Shown piece after piece: positions 649-42,720 of a DNA stretch of 49,956 nt (position 1 is the stretch's first letter; each line of letters begins with the position of its first letter). The notes under the pieces were generated by a model that worked only from the letters and a program-made list of their open reading frames with translations, was not told the origin of the DNA and searched no databases. Source of the stretch: a virus; the IMG/VR virus record IMGVR_UViG_3300035698_021428; one strand, 5' to 3'. The translations under genes and the position numbers were made by a program.

Positions 649-1803
649 ATGACAACACCTAATTGGACAGAAGACGTTAGAGCAAAAGGTAACACAAAAA
701 TTACCTGGGCCAATCATCTTTGCGATGACGAGCAAGCGAACGTTGTCGGTCGCGTCGTTTTTGTTCGATCATTCGGTTCGTTGACCTTCATCGTTATCCG
801 CGATGCGGCAGATAGTATACAGATTGGACTGAAGGGCAAGATTGCTCCGCCGCCGATGTGGAGCATTATCTCCGTTCATGGCGTAACTGGTAAGACCAAG
901 AAGGGCGAGCATACTGTTTGGACAGAGAAGTTTGAGTTGCTTGCTGAATGCAACGGAAATATGCCTGACAAGTTTCATGGCATCGAAAATGCTGAATACA
1001 TTTACAACAATAGGCCAGCGCATCTTATCGCTAATCCTGATCATTCTCATAATCTAATGATGCGTAGCCGAATTATTCGGGAGCTTCGTAGACGGCTTGA
1101 AGATGTTCATGCCTTTATGGAAGTCGAAACTCCCTTATTGAACGATGAACCTACAGGTGCCAATGCTAAGCCGTTCATAACTCATCATAATGCAGAGAGC
1201 GAAGACAAGTACCTGAGAATTGCTCTTGAGGTTCCGCTGAAGAAAGCTATCATTGCAGGTTTTCCTAATGTTTTTGAAATCGGTCGTGTATTCAGGAATG
1301 AAGGCGTTGACCGAACTCACCGCCCTGAGTTTACGATGGTTGAGATGTATTCATCTCCTGGTACGCTACAGAACATGAAGGATCTGTTCATTGACCTTGT
1401 ATCTCATTTGCGTGGAGAGTATATCAAGATTCCGACCTATGAGTATGACGACCTTGTAGCTGAACATGGCGAAGATTTTGATGAGCATATGCAGGAACTT
1501 TGCTTCGTCGCTGGTCAGCCTCTTGAACAGACACCGCTTTGCAAGGCTCGTGCTGATGGAAAGGCTGATAGGTTCGAGATCTTCGGTAGAGGCTTCGAGA
1601 TCGCCAACGCTTTTCAGGAGGTTCATACCGCCGAGGAACAGAGAGAGCGTCTTAGCGGCCAAACAGAAGGCTCTGATGACGGCTTGATTGGCGCTCTTGA
1701 GTACGGAATGGCTCCAACAGGCGGAATGGGTATCGGTATTGACCGATTGGTTATGTACCTGCTTGAAATAAACAATGTAAGAGACGTAATTCTTTTTCCA
1801 TAA
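649..1803 (+). CDS. lysS: lysyl-tRNA synthetase-like class II aminoacyl-tRNA synthetase, compact (384 aa)
   Basis: N-terminal OB-fold-like segment (VVGRVVFVRSFGSLTFIVIRD). Motif 2 'FEIGRVFRNEGVDRTHRPEFTMVEMY' is LysRS-type (FRNEG / H.PEFT). Motif 3 is 'GGMGIGIDRLVMYL'. About 120 aa shorter than bacterial LysS. Confidence 0.8.
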   Translation: MTTPNWTEDVRAKGNTKITWANHLCDDEQANVVGRVVFVRSFGSLTFIVIRDAADSIQIGLKGKIAPPPMWSIISVHGVTGKTKKGEHTVWTEKFELLAECNGNMPDKFHGIENAEYIYNNRPAHLIANPDHSHNLMMRSRIIRELRRRLEDVHAFMEVETPLLNDEPTGANAKPFITHHNAESEDKYLRIALEVPLKKAIIAGFPNVFEIGRVFRNEGVDRTHRPEFTMVEMYSSPGTLQNMKDLFIDLVSHLRGEYIKIPTYEYDDLVAEHGEDFDEHMQELCFVAGQPLEQTPLCKARADGKADRFEIFGRGFEIANAFQEVHTAEEQRERLSGQTEGSDDGLIGALEYGMAPTGGMGIGIDRLVMYLLEINNVRDVILFP

Positions 1804-1844: not shown

Positions 1845-2036
1845 ATGGCAATCAATGATATTAAGAAACTAGGAGATCAGCTAGCAGGGCTCAAGACTCC
1901 TCAGGAAGCTCGTCAAGTTGGGCAGTCGCTTGATGCTGCTCTCAATGGACAAGAACCGCCAACAGCAGGAGAAGCCATTACAAAGGATCCTGCGCCAACT
2001 CAGCCGCCTTTATCAGCGGCAGCACGCCATCAGTGA
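1845..2036 (+). CDS. hypothetical protein (63 aa), weak call
   Basis: ORF track only. No clear RBS. The 3' end overlaps the tRNA at 2025. Confidence 0.3.
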   Translation: MAINDIKKLGDQLAGLKTPQEARQVGQSLDAALNGQEPPTAGEAITKDPAPTQPPLSAAARHQ

Positions 2037-2113
2037 GCGGCAGGACGCTCACCAGCCTCCTAAGCTGGCTCCTTCGAGAGAAGGTTTCTAGGTTCGAATC
2101 CTAGTGATGGCGC
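2025..2113 (+). tRNA. non-canonical long-variable-arm tRNA; hand-read anticodon CCU (2059-2061); an 8-bp acceptor / 5-bp T stem (tRNA-Sec-like fold) is possible
   Basis: Acceptor cgccatca/tgatggcg. D stem gagcg/cgctc. Anticodon arm ccagc-ctCCTaa-gctgg. The 19-nt variable arm has stem ccttc/gaagg and a GAGA loop. T arm is ctagg-ttcgaat-cctag. Confidence 0.6.
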
Positions 2114-5590: not shown

Positions 5591-5707
5591 ATGAAGAATG
5601 CAATGAACTCAACATGCGGGACGACAGGAACGACACAAAGCGGCGGCGGTAGCTGCGGTTTTACATCGTCCCATACCCCAACGAGGTCTTGCCCTTCAGG
5701 TTTGTAA
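5591..5707 (+). CDS. candidate 38-aa Cys/Gly/Thr/Ser-rich peptide (MKNAMNSTCGTTGTTQSGGGSCGFTSSHTPTRSCPSGL)
   Basis: ATG 5591 is preceded by AAGGA about 10 nt upstream. TAA at 5705-5707 is followed by a plus-strand terminator at 5737. It competes with the minus ORF 5488..5721, which has a TTG start and no RBS. Confidence 0.25.
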   Translation: MKNAMNSTCGTTGTTQSGGGSCGFTSSHTPTRSCPSGL

Positions 5708-5736
5708 CATAATACAGACAATCAGAAGAGACGTAA

Positions 5737-5762
5737 GGCCTAGTTGAAAGACTAGGCTTTTT
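5737..5762 (+). terminator. rho-independent terminator
   Basis: Stem gcctagt/actaggc, loop tgaaag, then TTTTT. Confidence 0.8.
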
Positions 5763-5775
5763 CGTTTAACAGTAT

Positions 5776-5850
5776 GGCCGTCTACCAAAAATGGACAAAC
5801 GGCTCTGATTGCAAATCAGATGTGTGCGAGTTCGAGTCTCGCGGCGGCCT
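5776..5850 (+). tRNA. tRNA-Cys (GCA)
   Basis: Acceptor ggccgtc/ggcggcc. Anticodon arm tctga-ttGCAaa-tcaga. T arm gcgag-ttcgagt-ctcgc. Discriminator U. Confidence 0.8.
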
Positions 5851-5863
5851 TTGGAGAAATATC

Positions 5864-6052
5864 ATGAAAAAACCAACACTGGTTATAGGGACAATTGGAC
5901 ATGACGATCATGGAAAAACCAGCCTTACTCATGCCATGATGCTGAGAGCTAAAGCAAAAGGTAGAAACATAAACGTAGGTTGCGACATGGGCATGACTGA
6001 ACAAGGAAAATATCTGCTAGACAAAATATCTAGCATGAATAAAGATCAATAA
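5864..6052 (+). CDS. 62-aa EF-Tu N-terminal (P-loop / G1) fragment-like protein
   Basis: 'MKKPTLVIGTIGHDDHGKTSLTHAMMLRAKAKG' matches EF-Tu '[32 protein letters not shown]'. The ORF stops after about 60 codons, so no G3/G4 motifs or domains II/III are present. Confidence 0.55.
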   Translation: MKKPTLVIGTIGHDDHGKTSLTHAMMLRAKAKGRNINVGCDMGMTEQGKYLLDKISSMNKDQ

Positions 6053-6057
6053 AATTA

Positions 6058-6128
6058 GCAGGTATGGCATATTGGCTGTGCATCACTCTTCCAAGGTGAA
6101 TAAAGGAGTTCGATTCTCCTTACCTGCT
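6058..6128 (+). tRNA. tRNA-Gly (UCC)
   Basis: Perfect acceptor gcaggta/tacctgc. Anticodon arm tcact-ctTCCaa-ggtga. T arm aggag-ttcgatt-ctcct. Confidence 0.8.
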
Positions 6129-6491
6129 TTAGAAAGGAAAATTACAAACGAGTTCCAACCAATAGATAAAAGAGAATTTGATGGATGGCTTGACCCAAAA
6201 GGAAACTTCTATCAAACCCGATGTCATATAACATGGGCATCCGAAGATATAAAATACGAGAATAAAGAACTCTACAAAGCGTACAGGAAATGGTTCAGAC
6301 AAAGAAAATGCTTATCGAGTGAAACAGCGGTTGAATTTTTGATGAAGTATCATGGTTGGTGGAAGAGATCATCGATCGCAAATAGCAAATTGTGGTTGGG
6401 AGAAATGCCAGCTACTACTGCTCAAAGAAGATACATCAACAACGACATGGGCGAAAGACAGGATAACGGATATTTTGAAAAAGGATATTAG
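6072..6491 (+). CDS. hypothetical protein, start unresolved
   Basis: Open frame from the ORF track. Its TTG start lies inside tRNA-Gly, and no ATG/GTG/TTG occurs for about 95 codons after the tRNA end. The product '...FDGWLDPKGNFYQTRCHITWASEDI...' is not recognised. Confidence 0.4.
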   Translation: MAVHHSSKVNKGVRFSLPALERKITNEFQPIDKREFDGWLDPKGNFYQTRCHITWASEDIKYENKELYKAYRKWFRQRKCLSSETAVEFLMKYHGWWKRSSIANSKLWLGEMPATTAQRRYINNDMGERQDNGYFEKGY

Positions 6492-6498
6492 GTAAAAA

Positions 6499-6570
6499 GC
6501 GAGATTGATGTTAATGGTAGCATGACTGACTTCCACTCAGTTCGTATCAGTTCAAATCTGGTATCTCGCA
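6499..6570 (+). tRNA. second tRNA with UCC anticodon (tRNA-Gly-like)
   Basis: Acceptor gcgagat/atctcgc. D stem atgt/gcat. Anticodon arm actga-ctTCCac-tcagt. T arm atcag-ttcaaat-ctggt. Discriminator A. Confidence 0.7.
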
Positions 6571-6588
6571 TTTGGGCACAAGCTCATC

Positions 6589-6613
6589 GGAGACTTCGGT
6601 CTTCAACGTTTTT
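6589..6613 (+). terminator. terminator-like hairpin with UUCG loop
   Basis: ggagac-ttcg-gtcttc followed by aacgTTTTT. Confidence 0.4.
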
Positions 6614-6648
6614 GACAAGTGAATAGTTAGTTTTAAGTAATTTTCATT

Positions 6649-6679
6649 CCGCGGCGAAGGTTCGCCCTGCCGCGGTTTT
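6649..6679 (+). terminator. GC-rich hairpin plus T-run abutting the next tRNA
   Basis: Stem ccgcggc/gccgcgg (7 bp), 13-nt loop, then TTTT. It ends 1 nt before the tRNA at 6680. Confidence 0.4.
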
Positions 6680-6762
6680 GCTGATGTGAGCCGAATTGGT
6701 AAGGCAGCACTCTTGTAAAGTGCCGAGGAAACTCACTGCAGGTTCGAGTCCTGTCATCAGCT
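6680..6762 (+). tRNA. long-variable-arm (class II-like) tRNA; hand-read anticodon UGU (6714-6716)
   Basis: Perfect acceptor gctgatg/catcagc. Leu/Tyr-like D loop gaattggtaa. Anticodon arm gcact-ctTGTaa-agtgc. The 14-nt variable arm has stem gag/ctc and a GAAA loop. T arm gcagg-ttcgagt-cctgt. Confidence 0.6.
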
Positions 6763-6768
6763 TTCAAA

Positions 6769-7005
6769 CGAGAAGGAGAACAGCCAACCCATCGCTCTAC
6801 CCGTCACTGTTTCCATACGGATGAGAGGAAGGTCAGGACTGCACTTCGCAAAAACTCAGGAGGCCGTAAAATAGCCGTTCGAACTGGGGAGGCAGCAACC
6901 TCAAACAAGCCTAGCGTGGGCGAAGCGCTATAATGGTTGGGTTGGGGGCCACAAGATAAATGATGGGATAGAACAGGATCCTGCCTACGGGCACTTTCCT
7001 TCTCG
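6769..7005 (+). ncRNA. rnpB: RNase P RNA, bacterial type-A-like but compact (~237 nt)
   Basis: CR-I-like 'GAGGAAGGUCAGGAC' at 6825-6839 (E. coli: GAGGAAAGUCCGGGC). 'AGAUAAAUGAU' at 6954-6964 (E. coli: AGAUGAAUGAC). 'AUAGAAC..UCCUGCCUAC' at 6968-6988 (E. coli: ACAGAACCCGGCUUAU). The P4 helix 6830-6838/6979-6986 has bulged U6833 and three compensatory changes. The P1 helix is 6769-6779/6995-7005. No credible ORF. Confidence 0.8.
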
Positions 7006-7031
7006 TTTTTCAGTAGCATTGGTGTTAACGA

Positions 7032-7382
7032 TTAGCATTTCTGGTTATGTCTATTTTTTCTACCATTGCCTTTATTTAGATTACCGTAATTCGGCGTAAG
7101 AGAGTGACAATTAGGGCATAGTATTTCCAAATTAGTTTCTACATTATTTTTGTAGTTTCCATCTTTATGATGTATAGTAAGGGGCTTTTTGTTTGTAATT
7201 TTGTTTACTCTATCCCAATTACATTTTTCGCATTTTTCTCCTCGAATCAAATAAAGATATCTTCTAACAAAAGGTGAAATATTCTCGCCAGCTAGACCTG
7301 TTTTTTGTCCATTTTTCCATTTGCTAACATTCGTTTTAAAAACAAATTCCGAACTACATTTACGAGAGCAACATTTATTCAA
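7032..7382 (-). CDS. HNH homing-type endonuclease (116 aa)
   Basis: 'HHKDGNYKNNVETNLEILCPNCHS' HNH motif plus N-terminal Cys pairs. Free-standing inside the tRNA island. Confidence 0.85.
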   Translation of the reverse strand: MNKCCSRKCSSEFVFKTNVSKWKNGQKTGLAGENISPFVRRYLYLIRGEKCEKCNWDRVNKITNKKPLTIHHKDGNYKNNVETNLEILCPNCHSLTPNYGNLNKGNGRKNRHNQKC

Positions 7383-7452
7383 ATGAAAACTGACGAGTGA
7401 AAACTGAATGGACAGAACGAGAAGCTGTCGCCGGACGCATAACCGGCATTTT

Positions 7453-7553
7453 GTCTGCGTAGCTCAACGATAGAGCGCCCAACCTGCGATACAGTGTGCC
7501 CTTGGGAGACTGTCAGCTATGGGATGTTGCTGGTTCGAATCCAGTCGCAGACT
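7453..7553 (+). tRNA. tRNA-like gene (101 nt) with normal acceptor, D and T arms but a ~46-nt irregular anticodon region; anticodon not assignable by eye
   Basis: Acceptor gtctgcg/cgcagac. Arg-like D arm gtagctcaacgatagagc. T arm gctgg-ttcgaat-ccagt. Between them, cccaa...(a/t)tggg encloses the hairpin acagt-gtgcccttgggag-actgt. Confidence 0.5.
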
Positions 7554-7740
7554 TTTTGGATCGTTAGAGGTCTTCCACAGTTTTTATTCGGGCACGAATA
7601 ATGTTATTCTGGATCAAAGGAAGAGCCGGGTCTTTAGCCCTGTAGGAATCGCTGTCAAGGCGAGGAATCTCGAAATCACATTATGCGCATATGTCTTCGA
7701 GCAACGAGATCGGTGAAAGGCCGGCATAACGATCTGATAT

Positions 7741-7813
7741 TCCGTCTTAGCTCAATTGGCAGAGCAGCATACTCGTAATATGCAGGTTATCGGTTCGATG
7801 CCGGTAGACGGAT
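7741..7813 (+). tRNA. tRNA-Thr (CGU)
   Basis: Acceptor tccgtct/agacgga. D arm gctc-aattggc-agagc. Anticodon arm gcata-ctCGTaa-tatgc. T arm atcgg-ttcgatg-ccggt. Confidence 0.8.
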
Positions 7814-7886
7814 TTTAGTGAAAAAGAAGGAAAGCCAATATCGGATTTATTCTCAAAAATTAATGCCAAATTAAATCGATAAACTT

Positions 7887-8705
7887 TTATTCTGCATATG
7901 TTCTACGATACCAACCTTCATCTTGTTTGTGTTTAGATTCATTTAAGAACCAAGTGTAGTTACCTTTTTCTACAGATCCGTCTAACTTCTCGCTTCTAGC
8001 GGAACCATCTAAGAATCCAAAGTTGTTCTTATGATCTCCGTGCCAGTCGCCGTTGACAATATCTTTCTCGTATTTTTCTTCATCTGTATATCTACCTGAA
8101 TCCATCTGCGCCGCATCGCCGAGGACTATAAATCGAGATGGAACTGTCATGATATTGTGTATTTTCATTCGTTCGGTATAATTTCCGCCGCTACGATAAA
8201 GATTTTCAAACCCTTTTTTCGAACCTATATCACAATATAACCAGTCATTTGTAAAGTAACTTGTACCTAAAGCTCTCCCAACTGTGTGTTGATCTTGCTC
8301 ATTATGCCAAACAGTAGGCTCGCCGCTAGCGTAGTAACTTGTCCCGTTGTCTAACGGGCATGCAAAGATTTCTCCTCGTAAGCCAGTTGGGTAATATGCA
8401 TTTACTGGTCGAGCCTCTCTAAGAGTAAAGATATCTAAATCTGGATCATCAATAGCATCAAGAGATCCGCCCCACATCCATCGAACATTTCTTTCATAGT
8501 GCTCATCTGAAACAGGTACATTTTCATCATTTGAATCTGCATACATCGCCCAAGAAAGCAAATGCTGTCTTTGGTTGGATAAGCACTTAAGATTCATGGC
8601 AGTTTTTCTAGCAGAAGCAAGAGACGGAAGAAGAATAGCTATTAGAAGAGCTATGATGGATATAGAAACCAGCAACTCGATGAGGGTAAAACCTTGTTTG
8701 CGCAT
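7887..8705 (-). CDS. prepilin-type N-terminal cleavage/methylation domain protein (DUF1559-like pseudopilin), 272 aa
   Basis: 'MRKQGFTLIELLVSISIIALLIAILLPSL' is the type IV pilin-like leader plus hydrophobic helix. 'ARKTAMNLKCLSNQRQ' and the C-terminal 'HKNNFGFLDGS' resemble the DUF1559 family. Confidence 0.8.
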   Translation of the reverse strand: MRKQGFTLIELLVSISIIALLIAILLPSLASARKTAMNLKCLSNQRQHLLSWAMYADSNDENVPVSDEHYERNVRWMWGGSLDAIDDPDLDIFTLREARPVNAYYPTGLRGEIFACPLDNGTSYYASGEPTVWHNEQDQHTVGRALGTSYFTNDWLYCDIGSKKGFENLYRSGGNYTERMKIHNIMTVPSRFIVLGDAAQMDSGRYTDEEKYEKDIVNGDWHGDHKNNFGFLDGSARSEKLDGSVEKGNYTWFLNESKHKQDEGWYRRTYAE

Positions 8706-11158: not shown

Positions 11159-11241
11159 GGTGGCTATGGCAGATTGGTAATGCACCTGGTTGTGGACCAG
11201 GAACCGTAAGGTTTATGCGGGTTCAAATCCCGTTAGTCACC
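11159..11241 (+). tRNA. tRNA-His (GUG) with encoded G-1 and an unusual 15-nt variable arm
   Basis: 5' g-gtggcta resembles E. coli tRNA-His GGUGGCUA. Anticodon arm cctgg-ttGTGga-ccagg. Variable arm aacc-gtaa-ggtt-tat. T arm gcggg-ttcaaat-cccgt. C73. Confidence 0.7.
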
Positions 11242-11249
11242 CTTTAGTT

Positions 11250-17214: not shown

Positions 17215-17299
17215 GGAAGATAACCCCAAACGGCGACGGGCAATGTTTCGAAAACATTTGGAGGTTAATAGCCTTGCGGTTCGATCCCGCTGTCTTCCT
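17215..17299 (+). tRNA. tRNA-Ser (CGA), paralog of the 13271 tRNA (same acceptor, variable and T arms)
   Basis: Acceptor ggaagata/tgtcttcc. Anticodon arm aatgt-ttCGAaa-acatt. Variable arm tggaggttaatagcctt. T arm gcgg-ttcgatc-ccgc. Confidence 0.8.
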
Positions 17300-17401
17300 T
17301 TTTGAGTGAAATACTATAATCAGGTGAATATTGACTGTGGTACAATAGGAAAATCAACTGTTGCTATCGGATAAAGAATTAGATAAGGAGCTTGAAAATA
17401 A

Positions 17402-23436: not shown

Positions 23437-26127
23437 ATGCAAGACAATGATTCCGGCGCAATCCGAGGATCATCAGGCGATCTTTTGATCCCTGAAGGTT
23501 CATATGCTCATTTTTAAGGACTAACAACTGGCGCAATTTCGACCAAGGTTGGGCCTGCAAGCGTTTCGCAATCGGGGCAAGAACGTCCTGTTGCGTTCGA
23601 TCCAGCAAGGCGACAATTCATTGAAGTTAGCCGAGAAAGTTCGGTCAAACTCAATGTTATCGCTGATGAAACCAGTTATGTTATTCTTTCAAATCCGTGC
23701 ATTGCAGTCGCAGACGGCGATGACCAGCTTATTTTTCCAGGATCTTCGGACAAGATTCCCAATCAAGGTCTAGAGAGCGGTCGAAAAGTTGTGGTTCATG
23801 GACCTGTCGAATTTTCGCTTTGGCCTGGACAGACTGCAGAAGTTGTCCCGGGTCATGCTCTTCGCTCAAATGAATATCTTGAACTTGTTGTTTATGATGC
23901 TGATGAAGCAAAAGCCAACTGGGAATCAGCCTCCGTTGTTGAGACCAAGAAAACTGGCGGCGATAAAGAAGATAAAGATGATACGCAGGTTACGTCTACT
24001 GCCCCTGCTGATCTTCTTATGGGACAACGATTGGTTGTCAAGGGAACTGAGGTTTCATTCTATCGTCCTCCAACTGGTATACAGGTTGTTCAGAACGAAG
24101 ACAATATCTTTATTCGACAAGCTGTTTCCCTTGAATTACTTGAATACTGTATTCTTATCGACGAAAATGGCAACAAAAGGTATGAGAAGGGACCAGCAGT
24201 TGTTCTTCCTCGTCCATCTGAACGATTTGAAAAAAGCTCTAGAGGCAATAGAAAATTTAGAGCCATTGAGCTTCAAGACCAGGCAGGCGTTCATATCAAA
24301 GCGCTCAAGACCTACCAGGATGACGACGGAAAAGATCGCAAAGCTGGTGATGAATTCTTCTTGACGGGCAAAGATCGTCCTATCTACTACCCTCGCGAAG
24401 AAGAAGCCGTTATTCCTTATAGCGATGGCGAAAAGATTCACTTCGCTGTTGCGGTTCCCAAGGGGGAAGGCCGCTACGTTATGAATAAGACCACCGGTGA
24501 GATCGCAACGATCATCGGCCCCAAGATGCTTCTTTGCGATCCGACTAATGAAGTCATCGTTCGTCGCATCCTTACTGACAGACAAAGTAATGATTGGTAT
24601 CCTGGTAATGATAACTCTAGGCAATACAATCGCAATCTTCGAGAGATTCAGGAAGCTGCAGGAACGGCTGGTGATTTTGTTGACGATACATCAACACGGC
24701 AGGCAGCAACCAGGGGGCTTCATTCGCTGCGAGAAAAAGGCAATCCAAGAGTAGGCGGAGCTTCGTTCTCAAGTATGTCCGCTTCCGCCGGATCGGAACG
24801 AGGTTTTGAAAGCTTCGAACAAGCTGGTTCAGCAATGATGGGAGAACTAGATCGGCCATCAAGCTATACAGAACCCAAAAGCATTACTCTTGATACACGT
24901 TTTGCAGGAGTTCCTGGTATTGAGCTTTGGACAGGCTACACCGTTATGGTCGTTGACAGAGAAGGAAACCGCCGAATCGTCAGCGGTCCAACCAATATTC
25001 TGCTCAATTATGACGAGTCATTAGAAATCATAGAACTTTCTACCGGCAAACCAAAATCAACAAAAGGATTGATTCGCACAGTATATCTTCGCAGAGATAA
25101 TAATAAGGTTTCCGATTATGTTGAAGTTGAGACAAAAGACCATGTGAAAGTACAAGTAAAACTGTCATTCCTGGTCAATTTTGTTGAAGACAATCCTAAT
25201 GACGATCAGGATGATACCGATTATCAAGAGCGTTGGTTTGCTAGCGAAAACTATGTCAAGCTTCTTTGCGATCATGTTCGCTCGATTCTTAAGGGCGAAG
25301 CTAAAAAGCACGATATCAATAACTTTTATATCAACTCAACATCTATCATCAGAGATATCATTCTTGGTAATCGTCAGGAAGATGGCAGAACAGGTATGTT
25401 CTTTGAACATAATGGTATGCATGTTATCGATGTTGAGGTTCTTGGAACAGAAATTCTTGATCACAGCATTGCTTCGCTACTTACTGGCTCTCAGCGAGAA
25501 GCAGTTGAATCAAGTATTCGTCTTCAGTCTGCCGAAAGAACGCTTAATGTAACTGAGCAAATGGAAGCGATGTCTCGTAAAGAAGCAGTTGCTAAGAATG
25601 AGACCAAGAAGCACGCACACGATCTAACGATAGAAAGCATTGGAAGAACTCTGAAGGAGTCCCTAGCAGACATATCTTCAGAACAAGACAAGTCCGTTCA
25701 TAGGCTTACTGCTCGTACTGCCGAAGCTGAAGCTACTAAAATGGCAAACGTTATTGAGGCCGAAGCTGCGGTCGCAGGAAGCGAGATTGAGCGAGAAGAT
25801 CAGAAACTCGATCATGAACAGAAAATCTTAGAAGCAGAAGAAATAGCTAGGCTTGACAAGGAAGCGATTGAAACCGAAGTCAAGGCCACAGTTGATAAGC
25901 TCAAGGCCCTTGAAGGTTCGGGGTTGACCGACGTTCTTGCTACGCTTGGTCGAGAAGACTTCTTGACCCGTATAGCTGAATCCAGCAATCTTGAACGATT
26001 GATTGGCGGAGCTAGCGTCCAAGATACTTTGACCGGAATTTTCGGCGTTGAGTCGCCTATTGCTAAGGCGTTCGTTGCTATCAAGGCAGGAAAGCCGCTT
26101 GCTCAATCTTTGCTCAATAGCGACTAG
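23437..26127 (+). CDS. major vault protein (MVP) homolog: vault repeats, SPFH-like shoulder and cap-helix (~896 codons) with one in-frame TAA at 23515-23517
   Basis: GGAGA RBS plus ATG 23437. 'LLIPEGSYAHF*GLTTGAISTKVGP..ERPVAF' vs human MVP '[25 protein letters not shown]..ERVLF'. 'GDEFFLTGKDRPIYYPREEEAVI' vs '[21 protein letters not shown]'. 'YVMNKTTGEIATIIGPKMLL' vs '[20 protein letters not shown]'. E/A/K-rich C-terminal helix. The track ORF 23791 starts at an internal GTG. Confidence 0.8.
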
Positions 26128-31079: not shown

Positions 31080-32729
31080 ATGGCAACCAAACTTGGAAAA
31101 GGCGAGTATCCCAGCGATCATTCGCCAGAAGACTTTAAATGCTTTGGCCCTCCTGCTCAGGAAGACGGTCAGTTTGACGGCATGATGATGGCTGACATGG
31201 GCTGCTTCAAGCAAGATGGTACAGATTCCAACAAATTCTACCATGGCGCAGTTGTTCAATCCAAAAAAGATGATAGCTGGTATGCCTACTATGAATGGGG
31301 CAGAACTGGGAAAGGTTCTTCTGATAAGCAATTCGTTTGTTGTTCGTCGAAAGAAGAAGCTGAACAAGTATTCTGCAAGCAGATGCACTCCAAAAATGAC
31401 AAGCGAGGCGAATGGGTCAAGATAGGCAGTAAAGACATTCTAAGAGCGAAGACAGGCAAAGACTGCTACCTTATCCGTCCGCTCGCAAAGCGATCTCATG
31501 GCCTTCCAGACGCTCAGACAATCGTCCATGACGATAGCGGCAAAGCTGGCAGCGCCGTCGCTAAGAAAACAACCAAAAAGACCGGAAAGAAAACCAGCAA
31601 AAAGATTGCTAAGAAAAAATCAAACGTTGATCCAAAGACTCTTAGTCTTATGAAGGATATGAACGTTGCAGCGGTTGAATTTACTCGCTCGCAGGTTGAT
31701 AGCGATGCAGTCCCAACTCAAGGCGTTATCGATGAAGGCAGAGATGTTCTTATCGAAGCGGAAAAAAGAGTTAAGAAAATTGGATCAAAGCTTGAAGAAC
31801 AAATTAGCGATAGAGACCTTCGAGATCTAACGTATCATCTCTATTCTCGAATCGGGAAGCCAAAGCCTCTCAATACGCTTGAATCTGCCTGGATTCTTTC
31901 TCAAGACAACATCATGCGTTGGCGAATGGACCTTGATACATTTGAGCAGGCATTATATGCTCTTGACCTAGGCATTGGCAGCGATACTCAGAATACCTTT
32001 GATCCGTTCAATGGCATGAATATTGAGATGATTCATCTCGACCCGACTAAAACGGCTGAAGGTCAATTTATTCACAATTGGATGCCTGGCGCAACGAAAA
32101 ACGTCCACGGGCACGTTGGCGACATGAGTATTGTCAACGCATGGGGCGTTCGTCAAACTGATTTTGCACCAAAATTTGAAGCAACTGCTGCAAAGATTGG
32201 TAATCGCAATTTCACCCCATCTGACAAACCTATCAAGCAGCCCCGAAAACGATCTGATATCTCGCCAGAAATGGCTAAACTATTCGATCAAGCAAATGTC
32301 AATCTCTTATTCCATGGAACAAGATCTGTCAATGTTCCTGGCATTCTTCGCACAGGGCTAAGGCTCCCCAGAGAGCTTGTTGGAGTTGTCCTTACTGGCG
32401 CAATGTTTGGACCCGGTATCTATTGGGCCGATGATTGGAAAAAATCAGACGGTTACACTTCTCGACCAGGAACTTATTGGTCAAGAGGCGGGGGACAGGT
32501 CAAAGGTCGCAAGGCTTTTATGTTTGTTGCCAATGTTGCTCTTGGCAATCCTCATATTGCTCGCGGTCCTCAAGGATATACTGCTCCGCCGAAAGGTTGC
32601 GATTGTGTTGCAGGTCTTGCTAATAAGAGCAGCGTAGCCAACAACGAATGGATTGTTTACGACAGTATGCAAAATTCTCTTACATATCTTATTGAATACG
32701 AAGTTTCAGGCAGCAGCCGTCGCTGGTAA
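31080..32729 (+). CDS. poly(ADP-ribose) polymerase-like protein: WGR, Lys-rich linker, helical regulatory domain and PARP catalytic domain (549 aa)
   Basis: WGR 'FYHGAVVQSKKDDSWYAYYEWGRTGKG'. Linker 'AKKTTKKTGKKTSKKIAKKKS'. Catalytic H-Y-E triad: 'LLFHGTRSVNVPGIL', 'FGPGIYWADDW' and 'NNEWIVYDSMQNSLTYLIEYEV' (PARP1: '[22 protein letters not shown]'). Confidence 0.9.
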   Translation: MATKLGKGEYPSDHSPEDFKCFGPPAQEDGQFDGMMMADMGCFKQDGTDSNKFYHGAVVQSKKDDSWYAYYEWGRTGKGSSDKQFVCCSSKEEAEQVFCKQMHSKNDKRGEWVKIGSKDILRAKTGKDCYLIRPLAKRSHGLPDAQTIVHDDSGKAGSAVAKKTTKKTGKKTSKKIAKKKSNVDPKTLSLMKDMNVAAVEFTRSQVDSDAVPTQGVIDEGRDVLIEAEKRVKKIGSKLEEQISDRDLRDLTYHLYSRIGKPKPLNTLESAWILSQDNIMRWRMDLDTFEQALYALDLGIGSDTQNTFDPFNGMNIEMIHLDPTKTAEGQFIHNWMPGATKNVHGHVGDMSIVNAWGVRQTDFAPKFEATAAKIGNRNFTPSDKPIKQPRKRSDISPEMAKLFDQANVNLLFHGTRSVNVPGILRTGLRLPRELVGVVLTGAMFGPGIYWADDWKKSDGYTSRPGTYWSRGGGQVKGRKAFMFVANVALGNPHIARGPQGYTAPPKGCDCVAGLANKSSVANNEWIVYDSMQNSLTYLIEYEVSGSSRRW

Positions 32730-42648: not shown

Positions 42649-42720
42649 GCTTCGTTAGCTCAATGGTAGAGCAATAGTTTCTAAAACTACAGGTTGTCGG
42701 TTCGAGTCCGACACGAGGCA
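42649..42720 (+). tRNA. suppressor tRNA, anticodon CUA (reads UAG); body resembles tRNA-Lys
   Basis: Acceptor gcttcgt/acgaggc. D arm gctc-aatggta-gagc. Anticodon arm atagt-ttCTAaa-actac (anticodon 42681-42683, A27-C43 mismatch). T arm gtcgg-ttcgagt-ccgac. A73. Confidence 0.75.

Follow-up and report, generated by a model that had tools for sequence, protein, structure and literature searches.

A tRNA-like gene with a 46-nucleotide arm in place of the anticodon arm in the tRNA array of an apparent huge phage

In the window analysed here, the whole stretch of 49,956 nucleotides (nt) of viral DNA from the IMG/VR record IMGVR_UViG_3300035698_021428, we detected a tRNA-like gene of 101 nt (7453..7553, plus strand; hereafter the target gene), in which a complete type-I tRNA body carries a 46-nt irregular arm instead of the 17-nt anticodon arm. 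Judged from its sequence, the product almost certainly cannot decode, would probably not be aminoacylated, and is very probably not an intron-containing tRNA. We hypothesize, with moderate confidence, that the target gene is a lineage-specific, non-decoding tRNA derivative, disabled or repurposed, within the tRNA array of a huge phage, and that it would still serve as a processing unit.

Anatomy of the target gene

The Rfam tRNA model RF00005 matches the target end to end on exactly these coordinates, with 46.9 bits (gathering score, 29; E=5.6e-7 for the whole window), which is far beyond chance. A preliminary description of this DNA had proposed a tRNA-like gene at this position with a perfect acceptor stem of 7 base pairs (bp), a 5-nt variable loop and a canonical T arm, and both the sequence and the Rfam alignment agree with it in these parts. 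The D arm, which had been called Arg-like, is indeed canonical, but the Arg label reflects a mere resemblance, and a near-identical body is found in the tRNA-Pro(TGG) of another phage locus (L161; L-numbers denote the fetched loci used for comparison). Default ARAGORN made no call at 7453..7553. The body consists of the following parts:

7453..7459, plus strand: acceptor stem, 5' strand GTCTGCG, with 7/7 Watson-Crick pairs to 7546..7552
7460..7461, plus strand: U8 and A9 connector, canonical; U8-A14 and the A9-(U12-A23) triple are both possible
7462..7476, plus strand: D arm GCTC / AACGATA / GAGC, Rfam-aligned, D stem 4/4
within 7462..7476, plus strand: D loop of 7 nt (A14, A15, C16, G18, A19, U20, A21)
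7477, plus strand: G26, for which the canonical G26-A44 pair with 7524 is possible
7478..7523, plus strand: irregular arm of 46 nt, CCCAA-(36 nt)-ATGGG, replacing the 17-nt anticodon arm
7524..7528, plus strand: variable loop ATGTT, 5 nt (A44 U45 G46 U47 U48), Rfam-aligned
7529..7545, plus strand: T arm GCTGG / TTCGAAT / CCAGT, Rfam-aligned, T stem 5/5, canonical T loop
7546..7553, plus strand: acceptor 3' strand CGCAGAC and discriminator T, without an encoded CCA, followed by TTTT

With the arm taken as C27..G43 (positions 27-43) and ATGTT as positions 44-48, eight of the nine classical tertiary pairs are possible in the target, including U8-A14, A9-A23-U12, C13-G22-G46, the Levitt pair A15-U48, G26-A44, G18-U55 and U54-A58. 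The sole loss is that of G19: the D loop AACGATA has a single G and position 19 is an A, so that the universal G19-C56 elbow pair is impossible. The other tRNA genes of the window whose 3' ends were read likewise lack an encoded CCA, and several of them end in T.

The main deviation from a tRNA is located in the anticodon arm, where the RF00005 alignment places 38 inserted bases instead of 9 model positions and has CCCA/TGGG at the foot of the anticodon stem. Both the CCCAA and ATGGG ends and the hairpin ACAGT-13 nt-ACTGT, given in the preliminary description, are present, and the arm is built as follows:

7478-7481 with 7520-7523, plus strand: base helix CCCA/TGGG, in the minimum-free-energy and centroid folds
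7484..7490, plus strand: heptamer CTGCGAT, by inspection perhaps a remnant of an anticodon loop (C32 U33 GCG A37 U38), one base off the canonical register
7486-7487 with 7516-7517, plus strand: 2-bp helix GC/GC, in the minimum-free-energy and centroid folds
7491-7495 with 7509-7513, plus strand: 5-bp helix ACAGT/ACTGT of the hairpin 7491..7513, in the minimum-free-energy and centroid folds
7496-7508, plus strand: apex, 13 nt

The cloverleaf with this extended arm is the minimum-free-energy fold (-37.7 kcal/mol) and represents 45% of the ensemble, with pair probabilities of 0.92-0.99 for CCCA/UGGG and ACAGU/ACUGU alike. Together with the arm base aligned by Rfam, these values favor the extended anticodon arm that had been listed among the possible explanations. 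The stability of the arm alone is not significantly above that of shuffled sequences (z=-1.3).

Functional tRNAs have an anticodon stem of 5 bp, rarely 6, and the natural range is 5-6 bp (PMC7609411). The target lacks the canonical combination of a 5-bp (maximally 6-bp) stem and a 7-nt loop that has U33 and a purine as residue 37. An exhaustive scan of the native sequence found no 5-bp stem closing a 7-nt loop, as had been described before, and the only two candidates in which 4 of the 5 stem pairs form around a 7-nt loop both lack U33. A second heptamer resembling an anticodon loop, CTTGGGA, also occurs in the arm; neither it nor CTGCGAT is closed by a stem, and since about two heptamers of the form Y-U-NNN-R-N are expected by chance per 36 nt, CTGCGAT is not significant. 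No K-turn or C/D-box pattern was seen by eye in the internal loops of the arm, and its pairing in trans with the miniature ribonuclease P (RNase P) RNA or with the structured RNA downstream, both described below, was no better than that of shuffled arms.

Absence of orthologs and replacement in the tRNA slot

The target lies in an array with the following neighbors:

6680..6762, plus strand: tRNA-Thr(tgt)
6775..7003, plus strand: miniature RNase P RNA, 450 nt upstream of the target
7032..7382, minus strand: gene of the HNH homing-endonuclease type, 70 nt upstream of the target and on the opposite strand
7430..7447, plus strand: GC-rich hairpin with a T run, resembling an intrinsic terminator, which ends 5 nt before the target and is absent from L207
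7554..7740, plus strand: conserved spacer with a candidate structured RNA, which starts about 5 nt downstream of the target
at 7741, plus strand: tRNA-Thr(cgt)

The comparison of homologous loci, which had been recommended as a check, yielded no ortholog of the target. None was detected in IMG/VR by exact and degenerate DNA patterns, and GenBank phages searched with positions 5700..8000 of the window gave no match over the target, nor any that was T4-like. The neighboring genes did not lead to an ortholog either: metagenome loci anchored on the LysRS-like gene, the loci L207-L210 reached via the pilin-like neighbor, and the homologs of the HNH gene (all at 60% identity or less) contained none, the homologs of the 994-amino-acid neighbor, none of them above 38% identity, belonged to unrelated small phages and again gave no target ortholog, and exact-protein look-ups for two window proteins gave no match.

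In the closest relative, L207, whose pilin-like gene has 76% amino acid identity and whose RNase P RNA has 86% nucleotide identity to those of the window, the conserved flanks of the target slot recur, with ACATTTT on one side and TTTG.ATCGTTAGAGG on the other, and they enclose an ordinary tRNA-Thr(cgt) of 72 nt. The syntenic locus L173 contains no counterpart of the target. The comparison with L207 and L173 therefore indicates that the tRNAs in the slots are exchanged in the manner of cassettes and the spacers persist, and that the target is lineage-specific. Among the sequences searched, the target is a singleton, and nothing signals its conservation; the tRNA-derived regulatory RNA that the preliminary description had also listed may be considered a candidate at most.

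The only match to the target in GTDB genomes was a tRNA-Leu(GAG) of the Flavobacteriaceae, which shares the T arm and the acceptor stem. This likeness is judged to be due to chance or convergence, because the pilin-like neighbor of the array points to a different host. That neighbor, a prepilin-type protein (N_methyl, DUF1559-like; 7887..8705, minus strand) encoded next to the tRNA array, has cellular homologs almost all of which belong to the Planctomycetota/Phycisphaerae, and for this reason Planctomycetota is suggested as the host phylum. As parents of the target, the tRNA-Pro(TGG) of L161 and the Flavobacteriaceae tRNA-Leu both resemble its body, and neither match is decisive.

Proposed maturation and origin

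The acceptor/T-arm minihelix is what RNase P and the CCA-adding enzyme recognize. Because the target keeps this minihelix intact, as well as the D arm and almost every tertiary contact, and because these enzymes ignore the anticodon arm, we infer that the 5' end of a transcript would still be recognized by RNase P and its 3' end by 3'-processing and CCA-adding enzymes. In the proposed scheme, the original anticodon arm was replaced by, or expanded into, the 46-nt irregular hairpin, and the target would be cut from the array transcript as a tRNA-like RNA of about 101-104 nt. The disabled tRNA cassette may then act as a processing or 'punctuation' unit just 5' of the conserved structured RNA at 7554..7740. 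Its processing context is given by a phage miniature RNase P RNA 450 nt upstream and by the structured RNA about 5 nt downstream. As to its origin, the target probably arose by a cassette-like reshuffling of the array linked to the neighboring HNH homing endonuclease.

Several observations weigh against this interpretation. The 'punctuation' role is deduced from position alone, and the loss of G19 could weaken the recognition of the elbow by processing enzymes. The target may not be transcribed, given the terminator-like hairpin upstream, and no sigma-70-type promoter was detected nearby. As the target is represented by one sequence and no ortholog was found, a recent origin would explain the state of its body as well as selection would. 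Besides, tRNA-like genes with long arms recur in other phages, and one family of them is conserved, which may suggest a dedicated function instead of mere disablement.

The miniature RNase P RNA of the array is of the bacterial type and 229 nt long; it matches RF00010 end to end with 49.9 bits (E=1.8e-12). Its specificity domain is almost wholly deleted, and the CR-I, CR-IV and CR-V motifs are retained. RF00010 detected RNAs of the same kind (190-240 nt, 49-107 bits, one of them above the gathering score) in all eight of the other loci tested, and matches to an nhmmer profile of the miniature RNase P RNA occurred in about 19 phage contigs, almost always inside a tRNA cluster. Examples, among others, are:

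L183 482-672: miniature RNase P RNA
L158 6195-6396: miniature RNase P RNA
L171 2115-2309: miniature RNase P RNA
L153 12072-12271: miniature RNase P RNA
L166 5318-5514: miniature RNase P RNA
L173 3875-4116: miniature RNase P RNA
L157 4033-4246: miniature RNase P RNA
L207 15161-15379: miniature RNase P RNA

We found no description of a phage RNase P RNA in the searchable literature. An open reading frame (ORF) on the minus strand (6804..7019) that overlaps the miniature RNase P RNA is probably spurious.

The spacer of about 180 nt at 7554..7740 (plus strand) corresponds to L207 9718-9897 (minus strand), and its conservation exceeds that of the flanking tRNA genes. Its fold is multi-branched, with GGATCGTTA/TAACGATC as the closing helix and with five compensatory pairs, a count drawn from two sequences only. 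The spacer had no Rfam match, and a two-anchor pattern made from it had no match in IMG/VR. It is a candidate new structured RNA that could be released by the processing sites of the flanking tRNAs.

The HNH gene has a weak match to the Pfam HNH domain and a match to an NCBIfam HNH region with E=1.8e-7. It has 196 homologs, and one homolog lies in the tRNA array of another phage (L178); by these similarities, the gene is assigned to a large mobile family.

Alternative explanations

An alternative that we consider unlikely is that the target belongs to an undescribed functional class of non-decoding phage tRNA-like RNAs with long arms. The plan of this class would be a canonical type-I body with a 4-5-bp arm base and a 36-70-nt interior replacing the anticodon stem-loop. 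It is a similarly tentative proposition that its members are matured like tRNAs and recur in large-phage arrays, often beside a miniature RNase P RNA. They might serve as decoys or sponges for host anticodon nucleases, for other tRNA-targeting defense nucleases or for tRNA-binding factors, or as scaffolds or regulators. A pattern scan of IMG/VR gave at least 120 loci, and among the matches listed many are tRNA-like genes with enlarged anticodon regions. A rule-based scan of the fetched tRNA arrays, in which the minus-strand coordinates for L157 and L180 were converted from reverse-complement output, and the Rfam searches gave further genes:

L121 3292-3416: long cloverleaf gene, rule-based scan
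L121 2377-2480: tRNA body with an enlarged anticodon region, RF00005 31 bits
L157 7498-7615, minus strand: long cloverleaf gene, rule-based scan (Rfam ends 7497-7615)
L157 7347-7479, minus strand: long cloverleaf gene, rule-based scan (Rfam ends 7346-7479)
L163 2339-2437: long cloverleaf gene, rule-based scan
L175 1711-1809: long cloverleaf gene, rule-based scan
L180 1754-1866, minus strand: long cloverleaf gene, rule-based scan
L012 6692-6802: example of a family with a 94-nt span

The anticodon regions of these genes in other phages measure 45-80 nt, and the arms of L163, L175 and L045 are near-perfect hairpins of 16-19 bp. The two L157 genes match RF00005 with 36.8 and 34.6 bits. The L163 gene lies 2.3 kb from a miniature RNase P RNA, and ARAGORN called no ordinary tRNA in the fetched 10.7 kb. 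The target shares its plan with the 94-nt-span family, a gene of L053, L121 3292-3416 and the L157 genes, and the features common to them are G26, an arm base of 4-5 bp, a long interior and a variable loop of 5 nt (A44..U48). One long-arm family has 15 sequence variants in about 43 contigs, in which both the cloverleaf and an arm of about 57 nt are kept; A-U to G-C covariation is present in its acceptor stem, and the changes in its arm are one-sided only and compatible with pairing. On the other hand, the target has no sequence or arm homology to the other long-arm genes, is missing from its closest relatives (L207, L173), and has an irregular arm of unremarkable stability. The class itself is heterogeneous, its interiors being unrelated and its apices as different as GNRA-like tetraloops and 7-nt loops, and its members may be independently damaged tRNAs, and the functions of the members are putative only. 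No description of such long-arm phage tRNA-likes was found in the searchable literature.

The target could also be a dead tRNA pseudogene, either untranscribed or without a role, in which a segment of about 28-30 nt (the hairpin 7491..7513 and a few bases) was recently inserted and which would persist solely owing to the short time since then, a reading that seems to us rather improbable. Its singleton status without conservation, the irregular and thermodynamically unremarkable arm, the loss of G19, the terminator-like hairpin upstream with no promoter detected, and the high plasticity of an array with an adjacent homing endonuclease would all fit such a pseudogene. However, the body is undecayed except for G19, neither the rest of the window nor any of the fetched loci contains a source copy of the inserted segment, and the ends of the gene match exactly a functional tRNA slot that feeds the conserved downstream RNA.

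The preliminary description had also considered a short intron, in which case the target would be a genuine tRNA, spliced by phage or host enzymes into a decoder through an intron neither of the bulge-helix-bulge nor of the group I type. We regard this as very unlikely, and the intron reading is not supported by the scans. The excision of 29 nt would give CCCAT-GTCAGCT-ATGGG, with a perfect 5-bp stem, U33 and the anticodon CAG; CTGCGAT resembles the anticodon loop of an Arg(GCG) tRNA, so that a product like tRNA-Arg(GCG) is another candidate; and genes for the ligation of cleaved tRNAs have been reported in huge phages (PMC7162821). Nevertheless, a scan of all single excisions found no product combining a 5-bp stem, U33 and R37, and the best products are flawed, with C37 together with G32 (as in CCCAT-GTCAGCT-ATGGG, the best of all), with C33, or with a mismatched stem. 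The 29-nt candidate intron would fall inside the anticodon stem, and the heptamer on which the candidate like tRNA-Arg(GCG) draws is at chance level. Bulge-helix-bulge motifs were enumerated under relaxed criteria (bulges of 2-4 nt and a helix of 3-5 bp, compared with the classical two bulges of about 3 nt and 4-bp helix), and none of the 20 motifs obtained fits the acceptor, D and T arms together with the base of the anticodon stem. The core of a group I intron needs about 200 nt or more, whereas the insert has only 29-38 nt, and Rfam at E<=1 over 7400..7620 returned RF00005 alone and no intron model. No splicing endonuclease or RNA ligase was detected among the 38 window ORFs scanned against Pfam, the window representing 50 kb of a genome of probably >400 kb.

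The preliminary description had named a standard fold reported by tRNA finders as an outcome that would speak against it, and the intron mode of ARAGORN (-i) gives only a forced, non-canonical one, a class II-like tRNA-Ala(TGC) in which the anticodon stem CCCAA/TTGGG is combined with a 12-nt intron and a variable arm of 22 nt. The strands of this stem are fully complementary over 5 bp, which has a chance of about 3% of arising in the arm interior, long variable arms on type-I bodies exist in other tRNAs of the same phage, and the 3' 31 nt of the target resemble the class II tRNA-Leu(GAG) of the Flavobacteriaceae, including part of the 3' strand of its variable arm. This reading is nonetheless hardly credible, as position 33 is C and not U, the Ala identity pair G3:U70 is absent (C3-G70 instead), the variable stem would consist of U-G, G.G and U-G, the G26-A44 pair would be lost together with the 5-nt geometry of the variable loop, the pairing probability of CCCAA/TTGGG (TTGGG being 7502-7506) is about 0, and the fold reaches -21.2 kcal/mol vs -37.7 kcal/mol for the extended arm, i.e., about 16 kcal/mol worse.

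Comparison with known systems

That phage tRNA clusters can encode non-decoding tRNA-like RNAs is established since rnaC and rnaD (species 1 and 2 RNAs) of phage T4, and it is the combination of a full type-I body with a 46-nt arm that is new. Like the target, rnaC and rnaD are small non-decoding RNAs in line with phage tRNA genes, and a homing endonuclease gene, segB, adjoins the T4 cluster as the HNH gene adjoins the target. The rnaC RNA also has a canonical T arm (CCGGG-TTCGAAT-CCCGG) and paired ends. However, there is no sequence similarity between the T4 RNAs and the target and their folds differ: rnaC and rnaD lack a canonical D arm or cloverleaf, while in the target, with its complete type-I body, the anticodon arm alone is changed. 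We know of no function established for rnaC or rnaD.

Intron-containing pre-tRNAs of archaea and eukaryotes share with the target an insertion of tens of nt in the anticodon arm. Unlike these, the target has neither a bulge-helix-bulge nor a canonical excision product, and its context is that of bacteria and phages, with a transfer-messenger RNA (tmRNA) and a bacterial-type RNase P RNA. Group I introns in the anticodon loops of bacterial tRNAs likewise interrupt the anticodon region and are often associated with homing endonucleases, but the HNH gene lies outside the target and on the other strand, and no Rfam intron matches. The tRNAs with 6-bp anticodon stems, which also depart from the 5-bp norm on an L-shaped body, keep a normal 7-nt anticodon loop (PMC7609411), in contrast to the 46 nt, about 14 interrupted pairs and lack of an anticodon loop in the target. 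Among the tRNA mimics, the tRNA-like domain of tmRNA, YrlA and RNAs of the mascRNA type are tRNA-shaped, recognized by tRNA enzymes and non-decoding, in which they are similar to the target; their D arm is incomplete or their ends are permuted, whereas the target is a straightforward cloverleaf. There was no Rfam match to tmRNA, YrlA or another tRNA-like family at the target locus.

Taken alone, the target is probably a disabled tRNA, of importance chiefly to genome annotation: it is overlooked by tRNA finders or, when these allow for introns, mislabeled as tRNA-Ala. Its locus illustrates the cassette-like swapping of tRNA slots between conserved flanks in a huge-phage array. If long-arm RNAs are made and matured, they would be non-decoding tRNA mimics with a bearing on the conflict between phages and hosts over tRNAs. 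The finds made in passing, i.e., the miniature RNase P RNA, the structured spacer RNA and the type-I tRNAs with long variable arms, are arguably more notable than the target itself.

Other tRNA genes and proteins of the window

The window, which has the look of a segment of a huge phage, has 41% G+C and contains 13 tRNA genes and a tmRNA gene. Its protein genes encode a LysRS-like enzyme, a homolog of the major vault protein (MVP), a PARP, a SpoU methylase, and a histidine kinase with a response regulator. The IMG/VR contigs nearest to it measure 488 and 498 kb.

Long variable arms occur on type-I bodies in several tRNAs:

window 2026..2113: Arg(cct), variable stem of 5 bp
window 6680..6762: Thr(tgt), variable stem of 3 bp
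window 11160..11242: His(gtg), variable stem of 4 bp
L121 3776-3867: Arg(tct) in a relative
L173 1143-1234: Arg(tct) in a relative

Such arms on tRNAs with anticodons other than those for Leu, Ser and Tyr may affect which synthetase charges them. A tRNA-Ser(CGA) at 17217..17301 (plus strand) was missed by ARAGORN and by Rfam at the gathering threshold. It is apparently intact, with the anticodon arm AATGT-TTCGAAA-ACATT, and aligns closely with the tRNA-Ser(gga) of the window and of L121.

Two of the tRNAs, at 42649..42720 and 45505..45577 (plus strand), are of the amber-suppressor type with the anticodon CTA. There is no sign of in-frame TAG use in the ORFs of the window, where TAG terminates 9/29 long plus-strand ORFs and read-through adds little; if TAG is recoded at all, the genes affected must lie in other parts of the genome.

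The LysRS-like enzyme (649..1803) is truncated, with 384 amino acids, and scores 329 bits to lysS, under the family cut-off. The MVP homolog (23791..26127), which has Vault repeats and the MVP shoulder domain, is encoded within a few kb of a WGR-PARP protein (31080..32729), and this pairing is reminiscent of the components of eukaryotic vaults.

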